64,000 nt of DNA from a virus (IMGVR_UViG_3300017650_000009); one strand, 5' to 3'; shown: positions 14,826 through 47,000, counted from the first letter of the stretch. Notes: a model not told the origin generated them from the letters alone. A program made the numbers and translations.

Positions 14826-16040
14826 ATGTCTAAGGGTAAGAACACGACTTCCAAGATGGACACGACGAAGCTGAAGCCATCGGAAGCTTCGGTTGCTATT
14901 AAGCACATGATTCAGGTCAACATCGAAAATGCCAAGGCCGGCAAAGACCGTCGCGGTCTCTTCCTCTGGGGTCCTCCAGGTATTGCAAAGTCGTCGATCA
15001 TTCGACAGATTGCAAAGTCTCTTAACTACAAGCTCATCGACATTCGTCTCACGCAGATGGAACCGACTGACCTTCGCGGCATTCCCGTGCCGATCAAGCA
15101 GGAAGACGGCGAAGTGGTCGTTAACTGGGCTATCCCTGCAATGCTTCCACGCCGTGATCCAGGTCTCAAGACCGGCACAATCCTCAAGGATGTTCGTGAA
15201 CGTCGCGACGAAAACGATCTGCATTATGATGGTGCAATCATCCTTCTGGACGAACTTCCAAACGCTGCTCCTTCGGTTCAGGCCGGTTCTTACCAGCTCG
15301 TCCTCGACGGCGCCCTCGGTGAATATGTTGCACCGTCCAACGTTGTGATCATGGCTGCGGGTAACCGCGAGACGGACAAGGGCTCGACCTTCAAGATGCC
15401 GACTCCGCTTATGAATCGCTTCACGCATATTGAAGTTGAGCCAAACTTCGAAGATTGGCAGACGTATGCGCTTACGGCGAACTTCAACAAGGACGTCATC
15501 GGCTACCTCACTGCATTCAAGCACGAACTGTTCGACTTCGATCCTGCAAGCGCATCGCGTGGCTTTGCTACTCCGCGTTCCTGGGAAGCTGTTTCGGATA
15601 TCATCCGTGATGGTGCACAGTTGCCGGAAATGGTCAAGATGTCGCTCATCGGCGGCGCAATCGGCGACGGCATTGCGGTCAAGTTCCTGAGCTATCAGAA
15701 GCTTGCAAGCCAGCTGCCAAATCCATCGGATATTCTCGATGGCAAGGTAACCACGCTTAACAGCAAGGATATCTCGCTTATGTACGCTCTGACCACGGCA
15801 ATGTGCTATGAGCTGCGCGACCGCTTCGATGAAACGAAGCAGGACAAGACCAAGAAGAAGGCTTTCGATTCGTCCTTCGATAACTTCCTGGGCTTTATGA
15901 TGGATCAGTTCCAGCCGGAAATCGTGATCATGGGAGCACGTACGGCACTTTCGGTCTTCAAGCTCAAGCTGGACCCATCGTCCATGAAGAACTTTGAAAA
16001 GTTCGCTGATACATATCAGGATCTCATCCTCGGTGCCTAA
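14826..16040 (+). CDS. MoxR-family AAA+ ATPase
   Basis: GPPGIAKS Walker A, DLRGIP, IILLDE Walker B, AAGN, NRF, TPRSW; AAGGAG SD. Confidence 0.9.
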   Translation: MSKGKNTTSKMDTTKLKPSEASVAIKHMIQVNIENAKAGKDRRGLFLWGPPGIAKSSIIRQIAKSLNYKLIDIRLTQMEPTDLRGIPVPIKQEDGEVVVNWAIPAMLPRRDPGLKTGTILKDVRERRDENDLHYDGAIILLDELPNAAPSVQAGSYQLVLDGALGEYVAPSNVVIMAAGNRETDKGSTFKMPTPLMNRFTHIEVEPNFEDWQTYALTANFNKDVIGYLTAFKHELFDFDPASASRGFATPRSWEAVSDIIRDGAQLPEMVKMSLIGGAIGDGIAVKFLSYQKLASQLPNPSDILDGKVTTLNSKDISLMYALTTAMCYELRDRFDETKQDKTKKKAFDSSFDNFLGFMMDQFQPEIVIMGARTALSVFKLKLDPSSMKNFEKFADTYQDLILGA

Positions 16041-31204: not shown

Positions 31205-31483
31205 ATGGGCAAGAAAAACCGTTACGAGGACATTGATAAATTCCTTGAAGAGGTTGAGATTAATGTTATCCCTGAGGAATTCATTACGGCTGCATGTGTT
31301 ACGAATCTCGACGGCGATGAATATCTTGTTTCGTTCGACGAAGCTGCCGAGATTTTTGAAAACGGTTCACTAGAGGACCAAGGCATTTTAGCTGTTCGTG
31401 CTATCATTAATATGCGTGAAGTACGTGAAACAGTTTACCAGTTGTCCAAGCAATGTATGCGAGCAACTAAATCTAAAAAGTAA
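31205..31483 (+). CDS. hypothetical protein
   Basis: AGGAG SD; TAAATA 31149-31154 upstream. Confidence 0.7.
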   Translation: MGKKNRYEDIDKFLEEVEINVIPEEFITAACVTNLDGDEYLVSFDEAAEIFENGSLEDQGILAVRAIINMREVRETVYQLSKQCMRATKSKK

Positions 31484-31490
31484 GGTTTCG

Positions 31491-32171
31491 ATGCCATCTA
31501 TAGCTCAACGTTTTAATCCACTCCTAGATCCGCTTCTTGTAGAATTTCAAATTGACAGTTGGGGTTTAGAGGAAAAAGGTTTCAGAGTTGAGAAAACTAA
31601 TCCCCACTATTTGCTATTGAGGGAACAACTTCTCTCAATAGTTCCTCATGCTGTTGATGATCTCGAAATGAATCATGAGATCATCAGTATTCATCCCAGA
31701 GACTCCCTATGTTATTTGAATGAAACTATCGTTGTCGTGTATAACGATGTTATACCGGATCAAATAAAAACCAAATATAGTTTTCCCAATTCTAAATTAT
31801 GTCCGGATCAAGTAGCGATCAAGTACGATACTATCACGGGCGAAGCATTTGCCAAAGTTTATGATTTGGATTTTACTAAGTATTGGTGCCCCGAACTACC
31901 TACTGGTACACTTGTGGGTTGTGATCATGGTGTTGGAATTCATTTGACATCGGATAGTCGTTCGCGCTATTCTGATTTTTATCTAGCGCATACTTGCCGA
32001 CAAACTATGAGAGACTTCCTCGGGAAGCTTTATCCGGAATATCATGAGGATTTTGATCCCAAATTCCGTGGGTATTGTTTGACGGTGGATCAGGAAAGCC
32101 ATTCAATAGTGAAGGCTAAGCGCTATGTCTACTGGAAAGACAAAACCCTAGAGGATCCTTATACGATATGA
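31491..32171 (+). CDS. hypothetical protein (paralogue of next gene)
   Basis: AAGG SD; ISIHPRDSLCYLNETIVV shared block. Confidence 0.7.
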   Translation: MPSIAQRFNPLLDPLLVEFQIDSWGLEEKGFRVEKTNPHYLLLREQLLSIVPHAVDDLEMNHEIISIHPRDSLCYLNETIVVVYNDVIPDQIKTKYSFPNSKLCPDQVAIKYDTITGEAFAKVYDLDFTKYWCPELPTGTLVGCDHGVGIHLTSDSRSRYSDFYLAHTCRQTMRDFLGKLYPEYHEDFDPKFRGYCLTVDQESHSIVKAKRYVYWKDKTLEDPYTI

Positions 32172-32878
32172 TTACTCCTCATTTAATTGACGACTTATTG
32201 GAGTTGTCACCAGAATCTCGAACTATGCTTGATTCAAATTTAGCGTCAATGCAAATTGACAAAGCTGGTATTACCGAGCTATCCTTTTTTATGGACTTTA
32301 GTCAGCCATCATTAAAATTGCTTTGGAATCTATTGCTTAATACGTTCCCAAATGCTCAAATCCCAGGTCTCACTCCATCGAATATTTCAGTACATCCGAA
32401 GGATGGTGTATCATATTTGGGAGATTCAATTGTTGTTGATTATTCGGATTCCGATATACCTGGTAGTATTATTCGTGAATTTGATGTTCCAGATTCTGTA
32501 CGTCCAAACAGCGCGTTCAAGCTCAAATATAACTTGGATACAAAAGAAGTTATGCTAAAGCTATATGATACTGCGGTTTCAAAATATCCTCGCCCCAATA
32601 CGCCAGAAGGTACAATTTGGGGGTCGTTTATTGGTGTTGGTCGACAGTTTTCAAAAAGCAAACAAACTAATAATATTTTGGATTTCTACTATTTGAGTCG
32701 AGATCGCGAAGCAATGCGCGAATGGCTTGGTGATGATTATCCAAACTATGATGAAACATTTGTAACAGAAGCACGTGGTTACGCTGTTAGTACCGACTGG
32801 GAAACCGGACGTATTGTAAATGTCAAACGACATATCTACGCAAGAGATCCCGCATTACTCAACGTTGCCGGGGTCTGA
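32168..32878 (+). CDS. hypothetical protein (paralogue of previous gene)
   Basis: ISVHPKDGVSYLGDSIVV; ATGA overlap. Confidence 0.7.
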   Translation: MITPHLIDDLLELSPESRTMLDSNLASMQIDKAGITELSFFMDFSQPSLKLLWNLLLNTFPNAQIPGLTPSNISVHPKDGVSYLGDSIVVDYSDSDIPGSIIREFDVPDSVRPNSAFKLKYNLDTKEVMLKLYDTAVSKYPRPNTPEGTIWGSFIGVGRQFSKSKQTNNILDFYYLSRDREAMREWLGDDYPNYDETFVTEARGYAVSTDWETGRIVNVKRHIYARDPALLNVAGV

Positions 32879-33289
32879 TTCTATTTGAAATTCCTCTAGG
32901 AAATAATCCTGCACATCAGGGATCTCACTAGCAGACATATCAAAATCAAGCCCAATACGCTCAAGGACTGCATCATAGACATGTTTGTGGTCCGAGTAGC
33001 GTTTGAAGTATGGATCGTTTCCGTAAAGCAAATTAGCTGAATCCAAAGCAACATAAAAATCTTCTTTGAAGAAATGACTTAGAAGTCTAGCGTAGACTAT
33101 TGCTACGAGGTAACTCTTTGCCGGATATACAACCTTCGACGGAGCAACAGCAAAATACTCAACGATACGTTCAACTAGTGCATCGTCTGACCAATCGCTC
33201 ATATATTCAACACGTTCGTCTGTAACTTGATCCGGATGGAATCGATTAAGACGATGGAATACTTGCTGTCTTACTTCCCAATCTTTCAT
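32855..33289 (-). CDS. hypothetical protein, last gene of radical SAM operon
   Basis: 144 aa; ATGA overlap with upstream gene. Confidence 0.7.
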   Translation of the reverse strand: MKDWEVRQQVFHRLNRFHPDQVTDERVEYMSDWSDDALVERIVEYFAVAPSKVVYPAKSYLVAIVYARLLSHFFKEDFYVALDSANLLYGNDPYFKRYSDHKHVYDAVLERIGLDFDMSASEIPDVQDYFLEEFQIESDPGNVE

Positions 33290-33651
33290 CGTAGCTTCTT
33301 CATAAAGTTGTAGGGGTTATCATAATCGGAACTATCTGTGATTACAAATGATTCATAATGACTCGGATGTTCAATTGCAATCTCCGTGCATTTTGGATTG
33401 CGCATCATAAGCATGATGATTTGTTCTCTTGCTCGACGCAAATATTCTGGCTTCCCTGAATAACATGCAAATTGATTTGATTCTATGTGAATCCTAACCC
33501 AACCATTATCTGTGATTTCACGGAGCAAAGACAAGCCCTTCAACTTGGACTCAATATTCTGTTCACACCAACGCATATGCTCTTGACCATACAGATTTAT
33601 AATCTCTAGCTCCGGATTAATAAAATATGTGAACGAATTATCTAGCATCAT
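33286..33651 (-). CDS. hypothetical protein
   Basis: ORF tiles between rSAM-4 and last gene; start chosen at ATG 33651. Confidence 0.55.
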   Translation of the reverse strand: MMLDNSFTYFINPELEIINLYGQEHMRWCEQNIESKLKGLSLLREITDNGWVRIHIESNQFACYSGKPEYLRRAREQIIMLMMRNPKCTEIAIEHPSHYESFVITDSSDYDNPYNFMKKLR

Positions 33652-34549
33652 ACCAATCCAATAACCCCTTGAAACCATTGCACGATTTCGTAAGGTCTTT
33701 AACTTCGCGTAAGTGTTCACTCAAACATTTTCCGAAATATTTACAACTTGAACAAGTACCATTTGCACCAACACGAGCACGTTCTCGAATGGTCCATTCT
33801 TTGTATTCATGCATTGTGTCGATCTCTTGAAAAAACTCGTTATCGTGTTCATCAAATTCCAACACCCCAAATTTACCATTCGGTGTAATGTAGATGTGGT
33901 CATCGCTGAAACTGTTGGCGAACCCCTCAAGTGAGTCTTGAATCAAAAATTCATTAATGAATTCAAATCGTTTATTAACTGGTGATTCAATCCAACGCTT
34001 AATGAACTCTTCGTAATCTCGAAAGCTCACATCATCTGCATTTGCTTGATTCGTGCTATAGGGTTTGATTTCAACTGATTTCAAATTTCCAATCAAATTC
34101 AACTCATGAATCATATCATCCACTGATTTACCAATAAGATCCTTCCCTGCAAGCATTAGGATGCTGAAGTCCTTGGGCAAAGCAAGCATGTTATTTCGGA
34201 CGCTTTGATGTGCTTGCCGAGCATCGAAATCGTAGCTCACCGACAAATCGATATCATCCTCAAGGAATCCAGGATGGACTCTGGACAAATTTGTAATTAC
34301 ATTAATAGGGCCATCATAGTGGGTACGAATAACACGTTTCATAGTGTTCCAGTCGTGTTCTTTCATTAGTCCGACTTCGCCACCATAAAGATCCAAATGT
34401 TCGATCGGTGCATATTTAGCAACCTCACGTAATCGTGAATCCAAAACATCCATATTGATAGTTTTGGGATCACCTAATTGGTCAAGAGTCAAATAACAAA
34501 ATGAACAACGAAAGTTACAAAAATATGTTGGGTTCAACGAGATTTTCAT
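33638..34549 (-). CDS. radical SAM protein (rSAM-4) with C-terminal Cys cluster
   Basis: CNFRCSFC, YGGE, TNL; CSSCKYFGKC...C. Confidence 0.9.
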   Translation of the reverse strand: MKISLNPTYFCNFRCSFCYLTLDQLGDPKTINMDVLDSRLREVAKYAPIEHLDLYGGEVGLMKEHDWNTMKRVIRTHYDGPINVITNLSRVHPGFLEDDIDLSVSYDFDARQAHQSVRNNMLALPKDFSILMLAGKDLIGKSVDDMIHELNLIGNLKSVEIKPYSTNQANADDVSFRDYEEFIKRWIESPVNKRFEFINEFLIQDSLEGFANSFSDDHIYITPNGKFGVLEFDEHDNEFFQEIDTMHEYKEWTIRERARVGANGTCSSCKYFGKCLSEHLREVKDLTKSCNGFKGLLDWYDAR

Positions 34550-35628
34550 AGACCGTTAATCTCCATAATATCACCTGCTAGTGTTTTCATTGTGCTGCAA
34601 TGCGACTCGACCAGACCAGCTTGCTTTAAGTCTTTAACTGTTTTACGACAACCATTACAAATAGCGAACAACGGACAAGTATAACAATCGGATTTCATAC
34701 TTTGTAATTCGGGATCACTCTGCAAGGGCTTGAAGAATTGCCCTCCATAAACTTCAGCTTCGAAGTCAATTGGCTTGTCTCTATCATCACCGAATGCCCC
34801 GCAACTGTAATAGTCGCCACCGGGTTGAATAGTTCGTATACCTTCATCACAATTACGATTTTGCGGACAAATAGTTGCTGCGCCTTTAAGGCGTTTGGTC
34901 ATTTGTTTCGTGTTGAATTCCCAAGGTGTAAGTCCGGCTTTGTGAATTTCCACATAAAGCTTATAGACCTTAGCAAGCAAATACGGATTATCCGCTTGAC
35001 CCATTTTATGCCCGGTGCGCGGATCGATCTTGATATCCCCGCTAGCCATCGCATAATTCAATTTACATTCAACACCAACTTTTGTACCATCCGGTTTTAT
35101 CTCAGCTGGTTGATCCTCAGACATTCTCTTTGCAAGCTCTACATTTTTGATTGCCAAGTGTTCGTTCTCATCAGTAACCACACTAATGAAATCTGGACGA
35201 TATCCAACGTGTTCAAGCATTGCGTTGGATACTTCCCAGAGATCTTCCTCCGTGAACAATGTGAGATCGCCCTTAACCCGTCCGGGACCATAGTTGAAAC
35301 TAGTAGCAACTCCCATACGTTCATGTTGAAATAGTTTAGTCCACTTCTTTGGATTCTTTAAAAATGGCCACAAATTACTTGTGAAACTTATACTCGCTTG
35401 TAGCTCATGTTTATCCAAATGATCGATGAGTTGCCAATAATATTGGGGCGGAACCATTAGAGGATCACCACCGTTTACGATGATCGTTTGCGTATTGGGG
35501 AAACGTTTGAGGAACGCATAAACCCGTTCAAGATCAAGTGTTTGCGCGGAATGCGCAGAAATCTTGGTGCTCGAGCAGAACGTGCATTTGAAGTTGCACA
35601 ATTCAGTGGGTTTAATGATAAGATCCAA
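34546..35628 (-). CDS. radical SAM/SPASM protein (rSAM-3)
   Basis: IIKPTELCNFKCTFC, GGDP; CPQNRNC, YSCG, CYTCPLFAICNGC...C; TTG start. Confidence 0.9.
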   Translation of the reverse strand: MDLIIKPTELCNFKCTFCSSTKISAHSAQTLDLERVYAFLKRFPNTQTIIVNGGDPLMVPPQYYWQLIDHLDKHELQASISFTSNLWPFLKNPKKWTKLFQHERMGVATSFNYGPGRVKGDLTLFTEEDLWEVSNAMLEHVGYRPDFISVVTDENEHLAIKNVELAKRMSEDQPAEIKPDGTKVGVECKLNYAMASGDIKIDPRTGHKMGQADNPYLLAKVYKLYVEIHKAGLTPWEFNTKQMTKRLKGAATICPQNRNCDEGIRTIQPGGDYYSCGAFGDDRDKPIDFEAEVYGGQFFKPLQSDPELQSMKSDCYTCPLFAICNGCRKTVKDLKQAGLVESHCSTMKTLAGDIMEINGL

Positions 35629-35629
35629 T

Positions 35630-36538
35630 TTAGTCCTCTAAAATTTCCACTTTAAAAACTTTTGATGTTCTAGCGAGTTCCGTATACCCGGGATACCCAC
35701 GCTCACCTATTGATGTTCGAAGACTAGCAATGGGTATTCTACCACAACATGACCAAGCATACACTGGATCAAAATCCGGATCAATATGCTTGATTGCTGC
35801 TCGATTGTGATGCATGAAACTTAAAACATCAGTTGCAATACCACCGAGATCCTGAGAGAATGGAATAATATGTCCACTACCCATATGTGCAGGTGGACCA
35901 AAACGCTTTTCCTTAAATGCAGAATATGCATTACGCATCTCACCAAAACGTAGGATATCATGCCATGCGAGATCCACATAATCAAGTTCAGCATAAAGTG
36001 TTCCCGGAACAATATCCATTGTTAGGTATTCAAGCCATTCCGATTTAAACTCAATTGCAAAATGGGGATCGGGATAATGTCGAATCTCACCAAATGCTGA
36101 TTCACTATTTGATGTTCCCTTTAACGGTTCACGCACACGAGTTACATAGAACAATAAATGTTTGGTTTTATCGATTAACCCATTGATATGCATGGTTTTT
36201 TTAATTTCACCAAGTCTACCAGTTTCGACTAGGTCCATTAGGAAACGAATAGTATTATCGCAAACTGTTTCAGTAAGCTTCACAAATGGTACTTTGCCTA
36301 AAGGTGATCTAAATTTACTCAATTCAATGCGTAGTTCATCCCATATTACTCTGGCTTCATCCGAAGTATTACAAAAATAATTCTCAGTAAGAGCCAAAGG
36401 TGGATCATTAGGATTGAGCATGGTATACTCAAGCATATTTCTCCAAGACTTTGCCGGAGGTGTATCTAGGAATTCCCATTCCAAAGTAAGCTTGGAATTG
36501 TCACCAGCATTATACATAATACTCAAATATTCGCTCAT
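35630..36538 (-). CDS. hypothetical protein in radical SAM operon
   Basis: 302 aa, tightly coupled. Confidence 0.7.
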   Translation of the reverse strand: MSEYLSIMYNAGDNSKLTLEWEFLDTPPAKSWRNMLEYTMLNPNDPPLALTENYFCNTSDEARVIWDELRIELSKFRSPLGKVPFVKLTETVCDNTIRFLMDLVETGRLGEIKKTMHINGLIDKTKHLLFYVTRVREPLKGTSNSESAFGEIRHYPDPHFAIEFKSEWLEYLTMDIVPGTLYAELDYVDLAWHDILRFGEMRNAYSAFKEKRFGPPAHMGSGHIIPFSQDLGGIATDVLSFMHHNRAAIKHIDPDFDPVYAWSCCGRIPIASLRTSIGERGYPGYTELARTSKVFKVEILED

Positions 36539-36885
36539 TAGATTCGATCCTTTAGTATCTTTTCGAGTTGTTCTTCGAAGTTATCATGACCAGATACATC
36601 TGCAACTTGAAAATCCTTAAACAACTCAGGCTGCTCAAGCAATAGGGGTATGAGCTTTCCTTGCTTCTCTAGGCTAAAATAATCTAGATTGCCCGGCTCA
36701 CAAACATATACGTAAATTTGATAGAATGGAATATTTTGTAATTTTCGAATAACACCAACCGTATGTGCATCAGAGTTTTTCATTACTGCTAGAATGCTAT
36801 GAGTTGATGGGTGAAATACTTGGATTCCAAATGCTCTTATCTTTCTAGCACATGCATCCAAATAACTAGTATCGTCATCGAACAC
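36538..36885 (-). CDS. hypothetical protein in radical SAM operon
   Basis: 115 aa, AAGGT SD, TAATG overlap. Confidence 0.6.
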   Translation of the reverse strand: MFDDDTSYLDACARKIRAFGIQVFHPSTHSILAVMKNSDAHTVGVIRKLQNIPFYQIYVYVCEPGNLDYFSLEKQGKLIPLLLEQPELFKDFQVADVSGHDNFEEQLEKILKDRI

Positions 36886-37972
36886 CTTTCACCTCGTCTA
36901 CTTTCTTGTGAACATCCTTCATCCAACAATAATTCATTGAGCGAGCTGGCCCATTAAAATTCTGTTGAACATAGCACCCAAGACCGCAACGAGTGAAATA
37001 TTCACAACTCATACAATCACGCGCATCTAGAAAATCAAATTCTAGTTCGCCTGCTGTTTTAGGCATTCGATCTTTGTGCCAACTATTTAAGAATACCGTA
37101 CAACGACCTGCCTTACCATCAGGTAAGATTGTATAGGTATTCTGGCAACTCATACTATTGGAATCATTTTCCCGATATGTTTTGACCGGATGTGTATTTG
37201 GGTAATGTTCAACCAAATAAACTAGGAGATCACGCATTTCGGCGTCCTTGGGAAACATAGTTTCCCAGTTATCCTCTAACGTGTAATAGTCAAAATAGAT
37301 ATCGAAATTCTCATATAGGAAATCGAAATGTGGTATATTCCCGGATAGAAACTTACGAATACTCGGTGCAGTCATAACAACATTTACCACACTTAGATAT
37401 TCCAAATATATCTCAGCGTTACGACGAAACACTAGTAGATTCGATGCATTGAAACGAGCCGCGGGGTCATAAGACGTACCTAGATCAACATCAACGCCAT
37501 CCGCACGTAATCCATCTATTAGCCGTTTGACACGAGCTGTATTAAAGTGAACAAGATTGGTCACGAATGTATAAGAAATCTCGATCCCACGTTGCACGGC
37601 ATAAGCGTGGATATCCAAAACAAGTCCGCGATAATCTTCAAAAACTTCATCACTAATTGAGTCCATGAAGAGTTCACCACCCATCAGGTTGATACTGAAA
37701 TGGTCCTTGCGCATTTTCTGTAATAGTTCGATCGCTTTGATAACATCTTTGAGTTTATTACGTATTGCATTCATGCCGAAATCAGTTGCATGATCTTGAT
37801 TACAAAATTTACATGTAAGATTGCATAGCTCGAAGAGGGTGACAATTATCTCTCCATGTGAAGAACGCTTTTTACCAATAAGTGCCTCGGCGGTATCCAC
37901 AATTGGTCGAACTGAAGGATCGATATCCTTCAGCTCTACAAGACCATCCCCATCATAGACAACTTCAGCCAT
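36875..37972 (-). CDS. radical SAM/SPASM-like protein (rSAM-2)
   Basis: CNLTCKFC, MGGE, VTNL; CMSCEYFTRCGLGC...C; ATG 37972 with GAGGA SD. Confidence 0.9.
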   Translation of the reverse strand: MAEVVYDGDGLVELKDIDPSVRPIVDTAEALIGKKRSSHGEIIVTLFELCNLTCKFCNQDHATDFGMNAIRNKLKDVIKAIELLQKMRKDHFSINLMGGELFMDSISDEVFEDYRGLVLDIHAYAVQRGIEISYTFVTNLVHFNTARVKRLIDGLRADGVDVDLGTSYDPAARFNASNLLVFRRNAEIYLEYLSVVNVVMTAPSIRKFLSGNIPHFDFLYENFDIYFDYYTLEDNWETMFPKDAEMRDLLVYLVEHYPNTHPVKTYRENDSNSMSCQNTYTILPDGKAGRCTVFLNSWHKDRMPKTAGELEFDFLDARDCMSCEYFTRCGLGCYVQQNFNGPARSMNYCWMKDVHKKVDEVKGVR

Positions 37973-38753
37973 TGTCTTCCTCAAATAGAGTTTTTTCAGC
38001 CAACAAAATACCATTTAGGAATTCATTGGTATTATATTCAACAGTTCCCATAGTTTCGAGAATCGCAGGTAATGGGTTACCCGGACGCATAAACCAATAA
38101 TAGAGATTCTTGCCCTCAAACATATAATCTTCAAATTGCTTGGTAAAATAATGACATTCTTCGCCTAGCACTGAATAGTAGCATTCCAAGAAGAATGGCA
38201 AACTAAACAGGTTAACAAAGTTATTGCCTATGGCTTTATCATCATCAATTTGATGGAACTGATCTTTTGGATCACCGAATGCTTCTCGATACTTAGTGTT
38301 AATGCTTAACGTGTATATGATCATGGAATCCATAACCACACGCCACTGATTCACAAGCAATTTGTTTTCTTCAATGAACTCAATAATCTCATCTTTATTC
38401 AAGACAGGATTACCAATGACATCGTAGAAATCACCAATATTTTTAATAGCAGTAAGAATTGTTCCCACCGTGAGGGCCAAGCTCGGACACTTCACAAGGT
38501 TGCGTAGTTTCATATATTCGAGAATTAGTTCTTTGCGTTCGGCCGTTGTCGTTTCAGGGCCAAACTTGATGTCACAAGGAACATCCAAGTTGCTCAAATA
38601 TGTAAGGATTTGTTTTCCACGCATTACGCTCTTATCGTAATCGATTAGGAAAACAATATCCGGATTTGTAAATCCCTCTTTGAGATCATCCATACCAATC
38701 GGTGCAGTAGTTGAACGAATGAGAGATTCGTCTTTATCAAAAATGTCGTACAT
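37965..38753 (-). CDS. hypothetical protein in radical SAM operon
   Basis: 262 aa, AAGGA SD. Confidence 0.75.
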   Translation of the reverse strand: MYDIFDKDESLIRSTTAPIGMDDLKEGFTNPDIVFLIDYDKSVMRGKQILTYLSNLDVPCDIKFGPETTTAERKELILEYMKLRNLVKCPSLALTVGTILTAIKNIGDFYDVIGNPVLNKDEIIEFIEENKLLVNQWRVVMDSMIIYTLSINTKYREAFGDPKDQFHQIDDDKAIGNNFVNLFSLPFFLECYYSVLGEECHYFTKQFEDYMFEGKNLYYWFMRPGNPLPAILETMGTVEYNTNEFLNGILLAEKTLFEEDNG

Positions 38754-38762
38754 TTGGTTTCC

Positions 38763-39695
38763 TTATCGACGACTACGAGAGCTATGGCACGAAGCATGGC
38801 ATGAACTATGACAATAATCAATTGTTACACCAGCATCATAATCCTTTGCTGCTTCCCAAATACCATCCATACGTTGGAATACTTCAATTAGACCTGCTGC
38901 GGTAACTACAACACCCTTAGGATCCGGACCACCACCTTGGCCCGAAGCATCCACACGCGGTCCACGCATAACATCGGAATAAACAGTGTTACCAAAAACA
39001 ACACCATTTGGTGCGCCACGGAAAGGGTCGGCCATATGAGTCATACCGGATTTTGAACCCTGTTGAGCAAAACCATATAGATCTTCATAACGTTTAAGAG
39101 TATCACCTTTGAAATCAGCAACATAATTCTTACCATTCTGTGTGAAGGTGTGAGGATATGTTTTCGATTGCCATTTCACTTTGGTTGTCGCCATTCGTGT
39201 AATCATGTTACATCTGCGGACTCGGGTCAACGCATAGGTGTGTTGCATGATTTCAGTGGCGACAGAGCCTACTCGAGTTGCATTTGCCGCAGCATCATTG
39301 GGATCAATACCTTGACCACCATTTACGTCCCAGAACGAAACCTGTCCCTTAACATCATCACCCATATTCTGAGATACTTGCCCATCGTTTGGTAGGTCCA
39401 AAGTTGGACCACCAAATGCATCAGCAAGTGTTAGATTCGCACCGTTCTTTTTCCACCAACGTTGGTCATGGAAATCTGTGAATGCTGACAAACGGCCCAT
39501 CTGAGTAGAAAGTGCATCGGATACGCCAACTCGATAAAATTCAAAAGATGGATCCGCAGCATTGTCTCGGTGATAAACAATGGCATTTTGTACTTTACGA
39601 ACAAGACCAGCACGGAACTGACCCAGGATATCATCACTTACTGTAGGGCCGGTTTCTCGTGCACGAATAATCTGGCCTGGTGTTGGATTAGCCAT
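38763..39695 (-). CDS. putative modification target with C-terminal (CHxS)3-RSRR tail
   Basis: 310 aa ending IDYCHSSCHASCHSSRSRR; AGGAG SD; TAATG-coupled to rSAM-1. Confidence 0.7.
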   Translation of the reverse strand: MANPTPGQIIRARETGPTVSDDILGQFRAGLVRKVQNAIVYHRDNAADPSFEFYRVGVSDALSTQMGRLSAFTDFHDQRWWKKNGANLTLADAFGGPTLDLPNDGQVSQNMGDDVKGQVSFWDVNGGQGIDPNDAAANATRVGSVATEIMQHTYALTRVRRCNMITRMATTKVKWQSKTYPHTFTQNGKNYVADFKGDTLKRYEDLYGFAQQGSKSGMTHMADPFRGAPNGVVFGNTVYSDVMRGPRVDASGQGGGPDPKGVVVTAAGLIEVFQRMDGIWEAAKDYDAGVTIDYCHSSCHASCHSSRSRR

Positions 39696-40756
39696 TAATC
39701 TTTCTCCTGTAAAAACTTATCAAACAACTCATAGTCATCAACTGTTTTGAGATGCTTGATGAGACTTTTAGGACTTGCACAAACATTTCCCTGCCATTGT
39801 ACCTGTTGGCAATCGCCATTACAAATATCAAATACTGGGCAACTAAAGCAAGCTGGATTCCTATGTGTCTCACATGCGATCTTCTTCATACGACCTGGGT
39901 TCCAGAACAAATCCTTAATGTCCATATCCAGTGTACCGTAGTTATTTACTGGGGCGTCGTTCGGACAACCACCAATTGAACCATCCGGATTTAGCGTGAA
40001 CATCTTTTGTTCACAATTGCGACAGAAGACACCACCAGTAAAACCTCGATTGATACGTTCAAGTAGTCCATTCAAAAATATGTTTTGGGGTGCCCATTCC
40101 CATGCCTTATGTTCGACCATTTGATGCCACATACGGAGGAACCAAGCATCAAGCTCAATATTATCTGGAAATATCTTATTGTTGCCCACTGCATTGCCAT
40201 GCGGCGTGAGACGCTCGAGACTCAAATAACGAACACCAAGATCAGCGGCCATACGAAGTAATTCAATTGGTTCCTTGGAAATCGTATTACGACTCAAGCT
40301 TACCATAAGGGTTACATCGAACCCTTCTTCAACTAGCTTTCGCGTATTCTGTTCCCAAAGCGATGACTGTTTGGTATTTTCAAAACGAATGCCATCATCC
40401 CAAGAGGTTGCTATTGTGTTAGAGAATGCTTCCTTCATGAACTCCAGACGCTCTTCCGTGAGGTTAAACGTCAAGTTAGTACATGCGGACCAACGCATGT
40501 TTGGAAACAAATCCTTACATGCGAGCCAAGTCCTGCGCATGTGTTCGACAGGAGCCAGGAATGGTTCACCGCCGTGAAATTCAACAGTTACATGTTGAAG
40601 TAATGGCTGGGCTGCTTTTAATCTATGAAACCAGTCGATCGTTTTATCTGGGTCGAAATAAATCTTCCGACCCAAGCGACCACTTGTAAAACAATGTGCG
40701 CAATTAAGCTGACATGTTTCTGTGGTCTTCAAATAAATATGAAGCTGTTTGAGCAT
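39695..40756 (-). CDS. radical SAM/SPASM maturase (rSAM-1)
   Basis: CQLNCAHC, FHGGEP; CRNC, GGCP, CFSCPVFDICNGDC...C. Confidence 0.92.
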   Translation of the reverse strand: MLKQLHIYLKTTETCQLNCAHCFTSGRLGRKIYFDPDKTIDWFHRLKAAQPLLQHVTVEFHGGEPFLAPVEHMRRTWLACKDLFPNMRWSACTNLTFNLTEERLEFMKEAFSNTIATSWDDGIRFENTKQSSLWEQNTRKLVEEGFDVTLMVSLSRNTISKEPIELLRMAADLGVRYLSLERLTPHGNAVGNNKIFPDNIELDAWFLRMWHQMVEHKAWEWAPQNIFLNGLLERINRGFTGGVFCRNCEQKMFTLNPDGSIGGCPNDAPVNNYGTLDMDIKDLFWNPGRMKKIACETHRNPACFSCPVFDICNGDCQQVQWQGNVCASPKSLIKHLKTVDDYELFDKFLQEKD

Positions 40757-40759
40757 TTG

Positions 40760-41374
40760 TTATCCAATCAATGAGCCAGCTTGGGCCCACAAGTCGAGTT
40801 CCTTAACACGTGGCTTAATAGATCCAGTACCGAAACTAATCATCACAGAATCTTCAATATTGGTTGCGCAATGCGCAAGCCCCTCAGGCATAAACAGCCA
40901 ATCACCTTCTTCGAGAATATGAACTCCAGTTTCAGTTTCCATCTGTTTTACTCCGCTAATCATGTAGCAGAATACATGGCCTTCATCCTTGTGCCATCCA
41001 AATGAACCTTTATTCTCAAAACCAATAAACAAATGTCCATTTACGGTTGTTTCGAGTTCTTCCTCAAGACCATCAACGAGCTGGCGTACCTCTGCATTGT
41101 AGTTTTCCATGTCTTCTACCTTTATAGGCCAGCCATGATATTGGGCTTGATTTAGCATTTCGAGTTTGTTTTTGATGCCATGAAACTCATCAATACAATC
41201 AGTTTGCCAAAATGTTCCATCCGAATGAAGCTTTATTACATACGTTTCGCCGGATTCCAGCGTTGCCATGTTAGCCGCAATCGCTAGTGGATTCTCAGGC
41301 AGTTTCAAGTCAAATGGCTTGTTCCATTTTACACTCTTGAAATCATTGAGAATTTCCGGATCGAATAAAAGCAT
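40760..41374 (-). CDS. cupin/JmjC-like Fe(II)/2OG oxygenase
   Basis: SFGWHKD (HxD), GVKQ, GDWLFMPEGLAH. Confidence 0.8.
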   Translation of the reverse strand: MLLFDPEILNDFKSVKWNKPFDLKLPENPLAIAANMATLESGETYVIKLHSDGTFWQTDCIDEFHGIKNKLEMLNQAQYHGWPIKVEDMENYNAEVRQLVDGLEEELETTVNGHLFIGFENKGSFGWHKDEGHVFCYMISGVKQMETETGVHILEEGDWLFMPEGLAHCATNIEDSVMISFGTGSIKPRVKELDLWAQAGSLIG

Positions 41375-41446: not shown

Positions 41447-41469
41447 AATGGGGCCGAACTGGCCCCATT
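41447..41469 (-). terminator. terminator hairpin after tail fibre gene
   Basis: AATGGGGCC-N5-GGCCCCATT. Confidence 0.65.
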
Positions 41470-41488: not shown

Positions 41489-43369
41489 TTATTTCGTTTG
41501 AACGACTGCTAGTACGAGCCCTTCAGCATCATCAGTTTTGTCCTCAAGGGCACGGCCGACAACGTGGAACTCATTAATCGAAAGCAAATCACCACCATAT
41601 GCTTGTGCAACACCTGGAGTCTCAGAAAGAATCAAACGCTGACCCTTACGTACTTCACCGATAACTCTAACTGGAACACGACCAGTAAGTGCAACGGGAG
41701 GATGTGTTTCATTTTCGCCGGCATCCGCGTTCATAAGATGACCCGGATTAGTAGAGATAACACCAAAGAAATTATAATCCCAAAGACCCGAAGTCTTTGT
41801 AATTTCGTGCGTTCCACCGATGCTTACAAGTGTTCCCGGAGCATATACAGCATCTGCCGCATATCGCTCGGCCAAGTCAGCATACTTGGTGCTTGTGGAC
41901 ATACCATCGAACAAGTTTGCATAAATTGTACCCCACTTTGCACCTGGGCTACCCAAGTCGTGCTGACCCGTAGGTACAGAACTCTTGTCCAATGGAACAA
42001 AGCTACCACTCGGCATTGTACTGATTGCATCATCTACAACTTCCTGTGCAACTTCCTTAACCGAATCCTTACCCTTTTGTGTAAGCATTGCTGTACCGAT
42101 GAAATCATTATCAGCGGTTGCAAAGAGATTTTCAAATACAATTTCAACATCACTATCGGCGGTTTCAGTCTTCAATGACTTTGCTTCCACAAACATTTCG
42201 GACTTCTCTGCGTAGTCAGTCTTTTCCGCATACAAAGCTTTACCGAAAATGTTTACTTCTTCTGTATCATACTCTTCAGTATCTCCATTAGAAGTACCAG
42301 CGTAAATCTCCTTACCATAGATACGACGCCAATGCTGATCGGGTTTACCCAAGTCATAAACAATATCTGTGGTAATTGGATAAGTTGTTTCATCTGAACG
42401 CAAGAACTGAGAAGCGTTTAGACCGTTTAGACGTTCAGCATCTGCAGCCTGACCATTAACTAGCTGGTTCGCAGCATGGTTCATATTGAGACCTGAGTTC
42501 AACGTTTTATCAGATTCGCCCGGATTGGTATAATCGAACCATGCACCAAACGGCAATCCATCAATTTCATTTTCGATAAGACGAACAACTTCGTTTGTAT
42601 AAACAGCAACAAGAACACCATTTACGATGATCTTGAACATAGGAACTTCTTTTTCTTCACCGGTGACGGGGTCAATAACCTTAATGATTGTTACTTCAGT
42701 ATATGAGCCACCATCTGGATCGTTAGGATCTCTTGCGCCATCTGGACCAATTAGAACCCAACCATTGGGAACTGCCGAACCATCAACACGTTTCTGATTA
42801 GGAGGGAATGTTCCTTTTGAAGCCAAAGAAGAATCATATGCGAAAAGCTTACGCTCGGGAAGCATCCACCACAATTCGCCTTCATCTGGATCATCTGGAC
42901 CAGGAACCGGAATAGTAGGATCAATTGTACTTGGATCTTTATCTGGATCCAAACCTGTACTTGGGCCACCAACCTTTTTCCAGCGATAACCATCCCAGTA
43001 ATAGATTGCGTTGGTTTCCATGTTATACCATAGATCACCAGGCTCTGGGGTGTCAGGCGGATTTACACTTGATGTTGCTCCACCGACGTTAACCCAGTTT
43101 GTTCCGTCAAAAAGCTTTAGCTTATTAACGGTTGTAATCGGCGGGCCCGGATCAAAAGTATGAAACCAAACTTGCCCTTGTAGTGGATTTGCAGGAGGGA
43201 TTGGTGCAGCAAAACTCTCAAGCATATGAACAAAGTTCTCTGCGACAGCTTCACCGTAGTCAACGGAACCACGACCCAAAAGTGTTAGACTCGTAGATTC
43301 CGTATCCCTTGTGTAATCCTGGATTGTGGTTAACAAAGAACCATCAGTACGATTAATTGGATATGGCAT
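41489..43369 (-). CDS. tail fibre protein with C-terminal autocleaving chaperone-like domain
   Basis: N-terminal LLGRG...YGE...ENFVHMLESFA; GDLWY repeats; YADLAE...GVISTNP...VALTGRVPV (peptidase G2/IMC-like); GAGGAG SD. Confidence 0.75.
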   Translation of the reverse strand: MPYPINRTDGSLLTTIQDYTRDTESTSLTLLGRGSVDYGEAVAENFVHMLESFAAPIPPANPLQGQVWFHTFDPGPPITTVNKLKLFDGTNWVNVGGATSSVNPPDTPEPGDLWYNMETNAIYYWDGYRWKKVGGPSTGLDPDKDPSTIDPTIPVPGPDDPDEGELWWMLPERKLFAYDSSLASKGTFPPNQKRVDGSAVPNGWVLIGPDGARDPNDPDGGSYTEVTIIKVIDPVTGEEKEVPMFKIIVNGVLVAVYTNEVVRLIENEIDGLPFGAWFDYTNPGESDKTLNSGLNMNHAANQLVNGQAADAERLNGLNASQFLRSDETTYPITTDIVYDLGKPDQHWRRIYGKEIYAGTSNGDTEEYDTEEVNIFGKALYAEKTDYAEKSEMFVEAKSLKTETADSDVEIVFENLFATADNDFIGTAMLTQKGKDSVKEVAQEVVDDAISTMPSGSFVPLDKSSVPTGQHDLGSPGAKWGTIYANLFDGMSTSTKYADLAERYAADAVYAPGTLVSIGGTHEITKTSGLWDYNFFGVISTNPGHLMNADAGENETHPPVALTGRVPVRVIGEVRKGQRLILSETPGVAQAYGGDLLSINEFHVVGRALEDKTDDAEGLVLAVVQTK

Positions 43370-43398
43370 TGAATGCACTCCTCAGCTTTATTTGCTGA

Positions 43399-44057: not shown

Positions 44058-47000
44058 TTAAGCCGAGGGTCCCGGCTTAACATTAGAGTCATTTGAAGCT
44101 TTCCACCAAGCCTTCCAGTTTTTCGAGTAATCCTGTACGGAATGTACTCGGAAATCTGTTGTGTTCCAGCTTTGCAATGCATTCAATGTAGAACCATCAA
44201 ACACGTCCATATTCAATTGTGTTTCTTCATTACGCGAAGAACCACCAGTGCCACGAGCCAATCCTGTCAATGTGTAGGAACCACCACCATTATCCGTAAT
44301 TCCGGAATATGTTATGCGTTCTGCACCAAGCCAAACAACACCAGTGATGTTGTTCATCAATACAAGTGTCAAACGATCTTCAATTATCGTGTTAACAATT
44401 GTTGCATCAGGAAGTGCTTTGATTTCATCTGCAAGACCAATAAGTCCGAAAATTGGATTCTTCTTGGCTTGTTTTGCAGTGATGTTCTTGCTCAAATCCA
44501 CATCAATCGACAAAGCAATTTTCTCACGAATAGAAGCGATATATGCGGGATCATTATTTGCTGGATCAAATAGCGGAAGTGTTCCTGCTACTGTGATTTG
44601 CATTTCACGATCAGTTGGAGCAAGAACCTGTGCGAGCTTGATTCCGTGATCCTGCAGGAATACACCTTCCCAATTATTAAGGGAATCCTTGAAGAAACGA
44701 TATGCTGTTGGTCTTGTACTGATCATATCACCCTGTGATGTTGGCTTACGATAAACAGTAATCATCATTGGGTTACGAACACGCAAACGAACTAGTTCAT
44801 CAGGATGCCCACCTTCGAACCATGGTTGAACGAGTTCACCACCCTCAAGGCGAATATCATCAGTTGCTTCAGTCAAATATGGTGCACTATCGCTAACCTG
44901 CCATTGACTTTGAGCCGGATTAATATCCGTATCACGTCCAACATAAGCTTCAAACTCGCCATCCCATTCGGCCATATCCCAAGCAAACATATCCCAGATA
45001 CCCTGCTCGAAAGTACGACCATCAACAACTGTGCCACGGAAATCACAACCACGAATCAAAGTAGTTAGTTCCTTACGACGCATAGTTGCAGATGGTTCGT
45101 AGAACTGATCAATGCGATCTGCTAGACCACCAGCCCAATTAAGATCCCAGAACACATTGTAGAACTGTTCCCATTTTGCTCCGGTCCACATGAATGTTGT
45201 GCGTTCGCTCTTGACGATTGCAATATCACCCGTACGAAGTGTTGGTGGGTTACCCAAGTTAACTTGTGTTTGCGAGTCACGAGCAATTTGATCACGGAGC
45301 ACAACAGTTTCAACCAAATGCTGTTTGTATTCCTGATTTGGAATACGATATTGGTCTGAAAGTGCTGCAAACGTACGAGTATAGTTATTTCCAACCCAAC
45401 GTTCTTCATTGCCATCCCATGGCATCTCAGGCTGTGACCAACCCGCTAGTGGTTCACAACTTACACGATCAAACAACATTGTGATCTTCGGACGACGAAC
45501 TGGATTCCAATTAGCATCCCAATTTTCCAAACTGTAGTTGGTCTTCTTGTAATTTTCATACCACCACTTGAGCTGTGGATCATTCTTCATGATTAGTTGA
45601 TCATTAGCGTTTTCTGGATCAAGCTTTCTCCATGCTCCTTCACCATTGTTTGCTAGTTCGTCGTAATACATAGGCTTATCAAAGTCTGTGATTACTAGAT
45701 TTAGGTTTTCAATCGGCGGAGTCAAACGACGAACAAAGTCACGCACCTTAACATGGTATGGCTTGATATCTTCGATGTAACTCATAATGTTATCGACTTG
45801 ATCCTTAAACACGATTGGACTCTGAGTTAGCTGTTCATTGTAACCGGCCAAATACAAGAACGATGTCTTGAAAATCCAATCCGTATAAGGATGCTGGCTA
45901 ACAGCTACCTTAACCATACTAAAGAACAACTCATTACGTTCAAGACCAGTCAGGAGCTTTGTTCTCAAGCTGTTGATGATCCATTGTAGTTCCCACGAAC
46001 CATCACGCTTCTTAGAGCTACCAACCTTGTAATCATCAAAGCCGTATACCATCATACCCGGCGCATAGAAGTTATCAGCAAGACGGATGGTTGCTTTTTC
46101 CTTAGCAACTTCCAACCAACCATCTTCTGTACGCAAGTACCAAGACCAACGTGTATCTGTCTCACTCTGAGTATCAACTTGAACTAGTGTTCCACCTGGG
46201 CTGATTACCAATGTGGTGTCAGCATCACGTGCCTGACGATTAGCATAATGCTTGATTGGATAATCGTTTGTTGACCATCCATCAGCATACCAATCAACCG
46301 CAGTCCAAAGTTCACCCTCACGTAGTCTCCAACGTTCAGCTTTCCATAAAACAAAACCACTAGCATTTGCAGCTGGATTGCCCGGAGAGTAGAGCCATAG
46401 AGTCCACAACCCGTTTGTATCAGGAGTACCATGCATGAGTACCATCTGACCTGGTTCAACAACACCTGTTTCACCTAGTTGTGATAATTCAAATTCGTCA
46501 AAAACTTCACGAACATATTCAATTGAACTAGGTTCCGGATCATGACTCTCAAATATTTCTCTCCATTCATAACGAGTATCCAACACCGGTTCTCTTGCAA
46601 AGATCTGATTCAGTGTGTCAACAAATGTCTGGCGAGCATCACGGCCCGGAATTAGGAAACCAAAACCATCTGTATCAACTTTGAACCAAGTCTGCGATGG
46701 GCGAATTAATGATCCATAACGTTCATGTTCGTTGAGCCACTGATTAGGAACCTTACGACTTGTTTGAATTTCACGAGTCTGTGTTACCTTCGTTCCAGTC
46801 GCGTATCGTAGAGAACCCAATCCGGAAATACCAAAGAATGTGTTGTTGAACAGATACTTGTACTGAACCCAATAATCACCAACTCTAACTTCACCCGATG
46901 GAAGGAAACCACTAGCATCAGCAACGCTGAAGTGATCAACATTCGGATCAATCATTGTGGTTGCAATTGCGGTGAATGTCTTACGTTCAGCACTTGCATC

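Follow-up and report, generated by a model that had tools for sequence, protein, structure and literature searches.

We analysed a 64,000-nt stretch of a jumbo phage genome (IMGVR_UViG_3300017650_000009; the window), in which ORF calling gives 11 minus-strand genes running from 41374 to 32855, abutting or overlapping, as an earlier sequence-only reading had described. That reading placed the system at 32855..41374; the genes hold but the left edge does not, as two convergent plus-strand genes (31398-32878) also belong. Most of the stretch is also covered by contigs from four runs in four studies, for which no indels are listed, indicating that it is not an assembly artefact. The features are as follows (rSAM, radical SAM enzyme).

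31398..32171, plus: paralogue of the next gene, same family, 36% identical by sequence comparison
32168..32878, plus: convergent accessory gene of an unnamed family travelling with the cassette, judged from neighbour homologues
32855..33289, minus: conserved 144-aa helper closing the operon (phrog_20737, E 3e-40)
33286..33720, minus: 144-aa orphan insert, cassette membership uncertain
33638..34549, minus: rSAM4, with a single C-terminal Cys cluster (C266, C269, C275, C290, H279; phrog_1802)
34546..35628, minus: rSAM3, the most conserved enzyme, 8 auxiliary Cys (phrog_1802)
35630..36538, minus: 302-aa accessory protein, Phosso/Atu_ph07 group only among loci compared
36538..36885, minus: 115-aa accessory protein, Phosso/Atu_ph07 group only among loci compared
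36875..38014, minus: rSAM2, 7 auxiliary Cys (phrog_1802)
37965..38753, minus: conserved helper, usually directly 3' of T (phrog_20767, E 2.5e-70)
38763..39695, minus: T, the proposed substrate, 310 aa, folded, orthologue in particles
38766..38813, minus: (Cys-His-x-Ser)3-Arg-x-Arg-Arg tail of T at its free C-terminus, modification site predicted from conservation
39695..40756, minus: rSAM1, SPASM-type domain, 8 auxiliary Cys, usually directly before T (phrog_1802)
40760..41374, minus: JmjC-like cupin that passes the Cupin_2 and JmjC_2 cut-offs; predicted Fe(II)/2-oxoglutarate oxygenase
41447..41469, minus: 9-bp GC-rich, terminator-like hairpin 3' of the fibre gene (sequence and fold)
41489..43378, minus: fibre-like virion protein, 629 aa (phrog_19602 tail fibre, E 9e-13)

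Five of the 11 operon ORFs had no Pfam match at E 0.01, the same number as had been called unknown, and none of the 11 matched a protease or transporter among the Pfam and NCBIfam profiles, in line with the earlier remark that neither is recognisable in the operon. Homologues of 32168-32878, which has no Pfam match even at E 1, lie next to the cassette at 12 phage and 9 cellular loci. Among the loci compared, phmmer matched the 115-aa protein only in L001, L002, L005, L006 and L042, and profile comparison linked the 302-aa protein to none of clusters 9, 20 and 31 from other lineages. The orphan insert had no homologue among these loci and is missing at the equivalent place in Phosso; its annotated start is probably over-extended, since it overlaps its neighbour by 83 nt. 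The start of rSAM2 is probably over-extended as well, because 36875-38014 aligns with homologues only from residue 15 onward, and the true start probably lies at 37972.

The operon had been placed directly downstream of a tail fibre gene. The position is right, but the fibre identity comes only from PHROGs, where 41489-43378 matches a family of unknown function more strongly than phrog_19602, and the hairpin intervenes. Given this hairpin, the cassette may be transcribed separately from the fibre-like gene. The terminator scan did not list it; similar hairpins were seen by eye 5' of the cupin gene in L001 and L005.

The enzymes and their proposed substrate

All four rSAMs match phrog_1802 (E 6e-70 to 1e-37), and four ORFs match Pfam Radical_SAM, two above and two below the cut-off. 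The CxxxCxxC motif of the N-terminal rSAM domain, reported earlier for four enzymes, is kept in at least 90% of homologues of each. Of the C-terminal Cys noted alongside it, rSAM1 keeps 8 at the same threshold, rSAM2 7 and rSAM3 8, but rSAM4 only 4 together with His279. In a search against SPASM subfamilies, rSAM1 passes TIGR04085 (29.1 bits, cut-off 27), while rSAM2 and rSAM3 fall below it (17 and 20 bits) despite their 7-8 conserved Cys, and the named maturase families all score far below their cut-offs. The proposed HxD...H triad of the cupin is conserved, with H128, D130, H168 and K143 kept in at least 90% of 68 sequences.

T is the single gene with the (CHxS)3 tail noticed earlier and ends in CHSSCHASCHSSRSRR. 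For the pattern CHxxCHxxCH, the six frames of the window give an expectation of 1.5e-4 and a single occurrence. Across 19 full-length homologues, 12 of the last 16 residues of T are invariant, compared with 21 of the first 294. The third residue of the three His-x-x units, a position left free by our tail search pattern, is Ser, Asn or Ala in 182, 184 and 187 of 188 tails. Some tails vary. That of G151 can be read as four His-x-Ser/Asn units, which favours modification of the tail; variant tails lose the Cys spacing. The G146 tail retains just one Cys-His-x-Asn unit, a point against the favoured reading.

The body of T folds confidently in two independent models. The predicted structure has three long helices and a beta-hairpin (AlphaFold pLDDT 78, pTM 0.75), with pLDDT below 50 for residues 301-310. 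T is homologous to a 190-aa family over 176 columns (probability 99.7), and its identity to the Phosso protein is 51%, compared with 85% for rSAM1 (44% to RSL2) and 84% for rSAM3. Foldseek returned no solved structure at E 0.001 for either model, the best VIA-align Z was 4.1, and no search gave a match to gp38.

The cassette travels as one unit among phages and Bdellovibrionota

We used rSAM3, with median identities of 63% for viral homologues and 58% for cellular ones, as the marker for the genome survey, the tree and the reverse linkage search. The cassette is conserved across T4-like and phiKZ-like jumbo phages. A cassette rSAM is present at every one of the 77 viral tail loci and at 25 of the 27 loci from Bdellovibrionota. 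In the reverse direction, the tail gene is present in 38 of the 51 viral loci that were found through rSAM3 and have 9.5 kb upstream; 11 of the other 13 have a split layout, and one split-layout contig carries two tail genes just outside the searched stretch. The predicted synteny with a CHxxCHxxCH-tailed ORF in other large phages therefore holds both ways. Among 50 well-flanked viral loci, rSAM1 was found in 41, rSAM2 in 44, rSAM3 in 40, rSAM4 in 32 and the cupin gene in 34. The phrog_20767 helper is present in 37/50 viral and 23/27 Bdellovibrionota loci, and the phrog_20737 helper in 18/50 (a window-limited count) and 14/27. T, rSAM1-4, both helpers and the cupin thus form one travelling unit in unrelated phages and Bdellovibrionota. 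This two-way linkage supports the phage-encoded multi-enzyme maturation pathway proposed from the sequence, in which modification of the tail is the predicted step. Literature searches found no description of the cassette. Some lineages add B12-dependent rSAMs and further oxygenases to it, and in RSL2 and S13 dihydrofolate reductase genes lie inside it.

The cassette is chromosomal in 18 of 401 Bdellovibrionota genomes, where it forms one clade (SH-aLRT 97, quick tree). The tail pattern occurs in 12 of these 18, and two more have variant tails at the T position. Fusions of a type IV pilin to an S74 fibre domain were found in 13/18 rSAM3-positive genomes, 10 of them within 10 kb of rSAM3, compared with 9/383 negative ones (Fisher, p 4e-15, ignoring kinship among genomes). 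When six genomes that belong to the query alignment or lie close to it are dropped, the counts are 7/12 and 9/383 (p 3e-8, with the same disregard of kinship). The association is incomplete: in nine genomes the fusion occurs although both rSAM3 and the tail pattern are missing, five rSAM3-positive genomes lack a full-length fusion, and 560 kb separate the two in G005.

The linked cellular fibre gene has a C-terminal S74 domain (PF13884) above cut-off, and the S, D and K of its SDxxxK motif are invariant in 14/14 aligned proteins. The Bdellovibrio MAT fibres, which recognise Gram-negative cells, are likewise trimeric with a self-cleaving S74 chaperone (SDxxxK), but are about 1,000 aa long with a signal peptide and a beta-rich N-domain (PMC10769870). 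The cassette-linked proteins, in contrast, begin like a type IV pilin, with a pilin-type motif in 13 of the 16 whose start is intact, and the 14 aligned are 330-410 aa long. Neither 'pilin' nor 'radical SAM' occurs in the MAT paper (PMC10769870). By eye, no signal peptide that would account for export was seen in the Bdellovibrionota T proteins, a point against the favoured reading.

The T orthologue in virus particles and a proposed fibre link

In Atu_ph07, gp170, the T orthologue (39% identical), is in the particle proteome with 8 peptides and 35% coverage, whereas gp164-169, 171 and 172 are absent from the table and no cassette enzyme is listed. The enzymes' absence carries little weight, since gp180, annotated as virion structural, is likewise missing. 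The sample was PEG-purified, and the table includes some non-structural proteins and is silent on whether the tail peptide was seen. At 32 kDa, gp170 peaks in the top gel band (band 1), one of only two among 39 multi-peptide proteins of 25-40 kDa to do so. Because the loading buffer as written contained no reductant, disulfides or SDS-resistant oligomers account for this position equally well, and several Atu_ph07 fibre proteins also run high. The earlier choice between a virion protein and a released peptide thus tilts towards the former, with gp170 but not the enzymes in particles and the T body folded.

The C-terminal domain of the fibre-like protein begins at A500-D-L-A-E, and ADLAE is invariant in 25/25 aligned sequences. 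The domain is probably a self-cleaving trimer chaperone; the last 143 aa give weak matches to Peptidase_G2 (E 0.0015, 18.4 bits for a cut-off of 25) and, competing with it, to Phage_cement (E 0.0011, 19.5 bits), neither of which reaches its cut-off. Its Atu_ph07 orthologue gp176 (53.5% identical, 66 kDa) is in particles and peaks in band 4 among 50-56 kDa proteins. This position is consistent with self-cleavage at ADLAE, which predicts 52.5 kDa. A band of monomer size also speaks against a covalent bond between T and the majority of fibre chains. An ADLAE-domain fibre gene was found in 35/50 well-flanked viral loci; the upstream genes of RSL2 and DT01 come from another family without this domain, which counts against the fibre link.

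We favour, with modest confidence, a reading in which the enzymes modify the tail of T and the finished protein sits at the tip of a trimeric fibre, predicted to serve cell attachment. Its general part, that the tail is modified, is likely; the placement at the fibre tip falls a little short of an even chance. In the infected cell, the enzymes would recognise the tail by its RxRR end at the free C-terminus and introduce crosslinks into it. The favoured chemistry would be triceptide-like, with three-residue rings from the His ring to the C-beta of Ser/Asn/Ala (-2 Da each); the tail Cys could become thioethers, metal ligands or inter-chain links, and the cupin could add a hydroxyl. The phrog_20767 helper, for which the Atlas feature search gave no match, may present the substrate. 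The particle step is seen in Atu_ph07 only: T in the preparation, enzymes unlisted and most T far above monomer mass. In T-even phages, gp38 caps gp37; a separate monomer can cap a trimeric fibre. T, although it has no gp38 match, may dock in this fashion on the fibre-like protein, at the end exposed once the C-terminal chaperone self-cleaves. In the predatory bacteria, T would cap the pilin-S74 fibre on a type IV pilus.

An unlikely alternative keeps the modification but makes T a capsid or whisker component or an ejected protein, whose modified basic tail binds DNA or imitates the His-x-Ser repeats of HxsA, a defence effector of the host. The T orthologue is in particles, and Atu_ph07 bears capsid-associated whiskers; in the Atlas feature search T lay nearest capsid-protein clusters (0.93-0.94), with a low 135-145 of 256 features shared; and HxsA, in the part of the literature covered, has rSAM-matured basic His-x-Ser repeats and binds DNA. 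However, the capsid-less Bdellovibrionota keep the cassette as one clade beside pilin-S74 genes, and neither Foldseek nor VIA-align found a capsid fold for T.

Known maturation systems and other readings

The His-Xaa-Ser, ranthipeptide and triceptide families named by the sequence-only reading resemble the cassette, but all scores are far below the membership cut-offs. One close parallel is HXS (TIGR03976-03979; PMC13128918). It likewise combines several rSAMs, a non-enzymatic helper and a folded substrate with basic His-x-Ser repeats, and its product acts at the cell envelope in the phage-host contest; T shares the repeat feature, with three His-x-Ser units spaced by Cys. HXS is a bacterial defence built on rSAMs HxsB and HxsC and helper HxsD; it has five HxS repeats as well as a domain that binds peptidoglycan, and involves both N-terminal processing and export (PMC13128918). 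It also has a +8 Da modification and periplasmic antiphage activity. The cassette, in contrast, has at least four rSAMs of another family plus an oxygenase, is carried by the attacker (phage or predator), and its T has a four-residue Cys-His-x-Ser period at a free C-terminus and a body without Pfam match. HxsB and HxsC (TIGR03978, TIGR03977) reach at best 32.4 of 370 and 27.8 of 267.9 bits, no NCBIfam match to HxsA or HxsD appeared at E 0.01 for T or the helpers, and the HxsD-B-C-A order differs.

The triceptide rSAMs HaaB, HtkB and YhhB, which are cyclophane synthases, join His-C2 to the C-beta of the third His-x-x residue, as far as PMC11499958 was covered. The third-position Ser/Asn/Ala of T agrees with these motifs (PMC11499958, in part) and with the modified SHRSS of HxsA (PMC13128918, in part), and T has three His-x-Ser/Asn/Ala motifs of the aromatic-x-x core type. 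Triceptides, however, are short leader-core peptides with one maturase, whereas the cassette substrate is a folded protein of 125-430 aa, and the YhhB, XyeB, FxsB, GrrM and AmcB profiles give 18-30 bits against cut-offs of 310-450. Ranthipeptide and sactipeptide maturases (PapB, CcpM, StsB, RumMC) fit no better, the best being PapB at 40.9 of 340 bits. QhpD, which with QhpC matures the gamma-subunit of quinohaemoprotein amine dehydrogenase, is another rSAM/SPASM case, making several Cys-based crosslinks (Cys-to-Asp/Glu thioethers) in a subunit that stays in a larger complex; it is a single enzyme whose product is an enzyme subunit, and TIGR03906 scores 18 of 453 bits.

It is improbable that the tail is instead a metal, Fe-S or tetrapyrrole site for which the enzymes build or attach a cofactor rather than crosslinks. 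Three invariant Cys and three His would suit such a site, the tail holds two overlapping Cxxx-CH motifs that we take to resemble variant haem-c sites, B12-dependent rSAMs and extra oxygenases accompany some cassettes, and rSAM3 weakly matches the haem-pathway SPASM enzymes AhbD and NirJ in NCBIfam (E 2e-4 to 1e-3). Those matches reach about 20 bits against cut-offs of at least 500, weaker than the peptide-maturase matches; a cofactor site would leave the Ser/Asn/Ala third position and the invariant RxRR end unaccounted for, and variant tails lose the Cys spacing.

Still less probable is the reading of T as a RiPP precursor whose leader is oversized and whose modified 16-residue tail a host or phage protease sets free. 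Although invariance is confined to the tail, the best NCBIfam matches are peptide maturases (PapB, DarE and DynA, about 40 bits) and the proteome table is silent on the tail peptide, T is not a short leader-core precursor: its body folds confidently in both models and it is found in particles. No operon gene matches a protease or transporter, and neither recurs among the 45 largest neighbour clusters, judged by sequence and, for part, Pfam. We give very little credence to auxiliary metabolic or nucleotide-modifying enzymes with T as a mere neighbour: despite weak viperin matches of all four rSAMs (26-34 bits), the dihydrofolate reductase genes and, in the portion of PMC5332604 covered, a reading of rSAM-rich marine phages as Fe-S metabolism, the prokaryotic viperin scores (24-31 bits, cut-off 180) span only some 120 N-terminal residues of the shared rSAM core, and the linkage with T is two-way across phages and bacteria.

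Returning to the modified, fibre-borne T, we raise tentatively, as a possibility we hold more doubtful than the fibre-tip placement, that phages and Bdellovibrionota share an undescribed attachment device. This device would be a crosslinked, RiPP-like receptor-binding knot on a fibre-tip protein of unmatched fold, its tail built by at least four rSAMs and borne on phage fibres or on a type IV pilin-S74 fusion. If so, maturation of a particle protein by a radical SAM pathway that a virus encodes would be seen here for the first time, and the cassette would be, on the attacker's side, the counterpart to HXS defence.

Organization and conservation of the cassette

The radical SAM cassette is a real and widespread system, apparently undescribed so far. 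The window comes from a jumbo phage of the T4-like type, in which genes for the baseplate and for giant structural proteins (PHROGs) lie upstream of the cassette, and the T protein, the proposed substrate, is on record in a 434,884-nt contig. Its nearest cultured relatives are Sinorhizobium phage Phosso (host Sinorhizobium meliloti) and Agrobacterium phage Atu_ph07, both carriers of the cassette. The sequence-only reading had claimed a compact, co-oriented operon with a cupin triad, and both are borne out by 11 tightly packed minus-strand ORFs (41374 to 32855) and a conserved H-x-D...H, accompanied by a conserved Lys of the kind typical of JmjC enzymes. None of the four radical SAM proteins attains an NCBIfam maturase family cut-off, and the SPASM domain model is passed by rSAM1 alone. 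All four fall in one PHROG family, phrog_1802, and are only about 20-28% identical to one another's orthologues, yet every one of them is conserved between lineages; median identity to viral homologues is 47% for rSAM1, 31% for rSAM2, 63% for rSAM3 and 51% for rSAM4. The phrog_20767 helper had no usable Atlas match, and profile comparison of neighbour clusters covered nine selected pairs. Two further features of the window are relevant.

31398-32878 (+), gene pair; two paralogues of a family that travels with the cassette in phages and Bdellovibrionota
44058-57428 (-), virion structural protein of 4,456 aa; phrog_10938, Atu_ph07 counterpart gp180

In the cassette neighbourhoods searched, members of this gene pair's family adjoin the cassette in a further 12 phage loci and in 9 cellular ones. 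Neither gene has a Pfam match at E 1, and three of ten members scanned gave weak, unrelated matches.

The common gene order is cupin, rSAM1, T, phrog_20767 helper, rSAM2, rSAM3, rSAM4 and phrog_20737 helper, and it was found in Phosso, in Atu_ph07 and in the unrelated phiKZ-like phages RSL2, S13 and DT01; 15 of 50,697 cultured phage records carry both rSAM1 and rSAM3. T ends in CHSSCHASCHSSRSRR, for which the chance expectation in the window is 1.5e-4. A scan with the tail pattern returned 123 viral stretches (about 300 estimated), and 80 with flanks, less 3 duplicates, formed the linkage set. The proposed synteny with a Cys/His-tailed ORF held in both directions. A cassette radical SAM gene accompanied the tail in 77 of 77 viral loci, and a tail gene was present in 38 of the 51 rSAM3 loci that had 9.5 kb upstream, from a sample of 80 of 360. 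Eleven of the 13 misses have a split, head-to-head layout; of the remaining two, one begins with the helper gene and the other is assigned to neither class. For one split-layout miss the tail pattern scan located two tail genes just outside, and we infer that those of the others likewise lie just outside. An alignment of 19 full-length homologues of T, identified by sequence, shows 12 invariant positions in the final 16 residues but 21 in the first 294. At the third position of the three His-x-x units, which the pattern left free, Ser, Asn or Ala occurs in 182, 184 and 187 of 188 distinct tails. T belongs to a large family: of 8,000 candidates scored, at least 1,681 protein clusters are T-like. 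A tblastn search of cultured phages with a 190-aa T as query found nothing, though RSL2 and DT01 have such genes; because these known genes were missed, the search is insensitive.

Several lineages carry variants of the cassette. In one (L012, L037, L045, L046, L050, L086, L089, L091 and similar loci), two tandem T genes of 125-140 aa directly follow a long fibre gene, at least five radical SAM proteins belong to a fifth family (cluster 0), and the remaining cassette lies head-to-head more than 10 kb away. Many lineages include B12-binding radical SAM proteins (cluster 15, e.g. L063:818-2578 and L171:5138-6865) and extra 2OG-Fe(II) oxygenases as accessory members, which suggests methylation and further oxidation. 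In RSL2 (L003:18030-19179) and S13 (L188:18394-19571), a gene annotated as dihydrofolate reductase separates rSAM2 from rSAM3. Another radical SAM gene, about 4 kb downstream of the Phosso cassette, adjoins an HNH endonuclease (L001:23609-24526). A 4.3-kb contig from a Dysosmobacter segnis assembly encodes a T fragment with eight Cys-His-x-Ser units (L163:3907-4266, minus strand) alongside cassette radical SAM proteins, of which rSAM3 groups with phiKZ-like phages. Phage S13, a carrier, is described as flagellum-dependent (PMC11898562), a single case that we do not count as evidence.

A promoter scan of the window did no better than chance, with 34 matches against an expectation of 32. The motif AATAAATA, close to the T4 late promoter consensus, lies upstream of three structural genes (61445, 44058 and 43405, minus strand), and a one-mismatch copy of AATAAATA precedes the cupin. 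As the motif was not seen 5' of the cupin in Phosso or in loci L002 and L005, we do not claim a late promoter for the cassette.

T in phage particles

The published particle table of Atu_ph07 (Table S5 of Attai et al. 2018, PMC6102473) lists gp170, an orthologue 39% identical to T, with 8 peptides and 35% coverage; the other cassette products (gp164-169, 171 and 172) do not appear in that table. Although gp170 has a mass of 31.9 kDa, the table places it as most abundant in band 1, alongside proteins of 127-139 kDa. Of the 39 multi-peptide proteins with masses of 25-40 kDa, only 2 peak there, gp170 among them. This position fits a covalent or SDS-resistant assembly. Some caveats apply, as according to the same source the sample was PEG-purified, the buffer as written contained no reductant, other Atu_ph07 fibres also run high, and gp180 is likewise missing from the table. 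A second small protein peaking in band 1 is gp321 (36 kDa, 2 peptides). gp176 (66 kDa), the orthologue of the fibre-like gene upstream of the cassette, peaks in the table among proteins of 50-56 kDa, matching the 52.5 kDa calculated without its C-terminal ADLAE domain; this domain weakly matches the self-cleaving Peptidase_G2 chaperone, and a rival match is equally weak. No second particle proteome was found in the open-access literature.

AlphaFold models of the window's T (pLDDT 78) and of a 190-aa relative (pLDDT 88) both combine a confident body with an uncertain tail, and the 310-aa and 190-aa forms are homologous along the body. Comparison with solved structures gave no Foldseek PDB match at E 0.001, a best VIA-align Z of 4.1 and a best sequence match to the PDB of E 0.44; a missing structural match is no proof of a new fold. 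The matches in BFVD were homologues and, at E 0.005 and 0.25, two uncharacterised Myoviridae proteins of greater length.

The cassette and pilin-S74 fusions in predatory bacteria

Scanning 185,579 species genomes with the tail pattern gave 47 stretches. Eight of them did not coincide with the end of an in-frame ORF and were set aside; 27 of the remaining 39 are titled Bdellovibrionota. Gene order and tree position suggest that several of the other 12 are binned phage contigs. The genes around the Bdellovibrionota copies are cellular, such as those for signal peptidase II, LolA and ABC transporters; two copies are on contigs of 2.4-2.8 Mb. In a quick rSAM3 tree, from which we do not read the direction of transfer, 18 Bdellovibrionota proteins and one from a Flavobacteriaceae MAG form one group (SH-aLRT 97), and one further Bdellovibrionota protein lies outside on a long branch. 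The MAG cassette (L173) matches the Halobacteriovoraceae locus L155 in gene order and clusters with it in the tree, through either mis-binning or transfer. With five candidates scored per genome, rSAM3 occurs in 18 of 401 sampled Bdellovibrionota genomes, most of them incomplete; genome G151 has two copies. Two variant tails stand at the T position in Bdellovibrionota genomes (L273:9562-10170 and L274 near 15294-15620): one, CHSNHCSHSNHGSRGRR, can be read as four His-x-Ser/Asn units, and the other, on an ORF of about 108 aa, keeps a single Cys-His-Ser-Asn unit.

An S74-chaperone gene lies within 8 kb in 10 of the 27 Bdellovibrionota loci. The cassette-linked S74 proteins are 330-410 aa long, begin like a type IV pilin, contain two invariant Cys and carry an SDxxxK chaperone. 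The following Bdellovibrionota stretches encode type IV pilin-like proteins fused to a phage-type S74 self-cleaving chaperone.

L139:13854-15041
L145:9904-13646
L155:169-1410
L165:4263-5300
L190:15467-16585
L191:6448-10116
L192:8250-9347

Of 11 S74 matches in five genomes, 8 are no more than 30 kb from rSAM3. Among the 401 genomes, again with five candidates scored for each and uncorrected for kinship, the full-length fusion occurs in 22 and co-occurs with rSAM3 in 13, the pair being at most 10 kb apart in 10. As counter-evidence to a link, the cassette is missing from nine genomes that have the fusion, and five have rSAM3 without a full-length fusion. The fusions sometimes occur as three tandem paralogues. 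The main text of the MAT-fibre paper (PMC10769870) mentions neither 'radical SAM' nor 'pilin' nor such fusions.

Proposed function and implications

We infer that the radical SAM enzymes post-translationally modify the tail of T. For a folded protein of the particle whose free tail is invariant and which is tied to four conserved, peptide-maturase-like enzymes, such modification would be the most economical explanation. Its His-x-Ser/Asn/Ala units fit the ring motif of HaaB, HtkB and YhhB, which are described as making His-C2 to C-beta rings (PMC11499958), and His-x-Ser also fits the SHRSS of HxsA, reported to undergo a radical SAM-dependent +8 Da change (PMC13128918). In its workings the cassette would resemble HXS, or a RiPP pathway in which several enzymes act on a protein; it is a member of neither, differing in enzymes, substrate and gene order.

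The gp38 protein caps the fibre tip on gp37. By analogy, we propose that T may cap the fibre tip in phages and predators alike, because a chaperone-ended fibre is the neighbour common to both. This step fits the RSL2/DT01 lineage less cleanly and does not account for how T is exported in bacteria.

The open-access literature searched yielded no account of the cassette. The genome papers of FLC6 (PMC8066314) and S13 (PMC11898562), as far as consulted, merely list its genes, and a marine study took radical SAM-rich phages, which may or may not carry this cassette, as a sign of Fe-S metabolism (PMC5332604). The cassette would represent a new form of radical SAM protein maturation, acting on a virion protein. 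It offers four conserved enzyme families and an obvious 16-residue substrate, and new crosslinking chemistry is therefore directly testable by co-expression. The pilin-S74 link suggests a prey-recognition module common to predatory bacteria and phages, and touches on prey recognition by such predators, an open question. If our reading is true, natural-product-style radical chemistry serves phages in completing their own particles, for which we found no precedent in the open-access literature, and many phage radical SAM genes now taken as metabolic extras would be reassigned.
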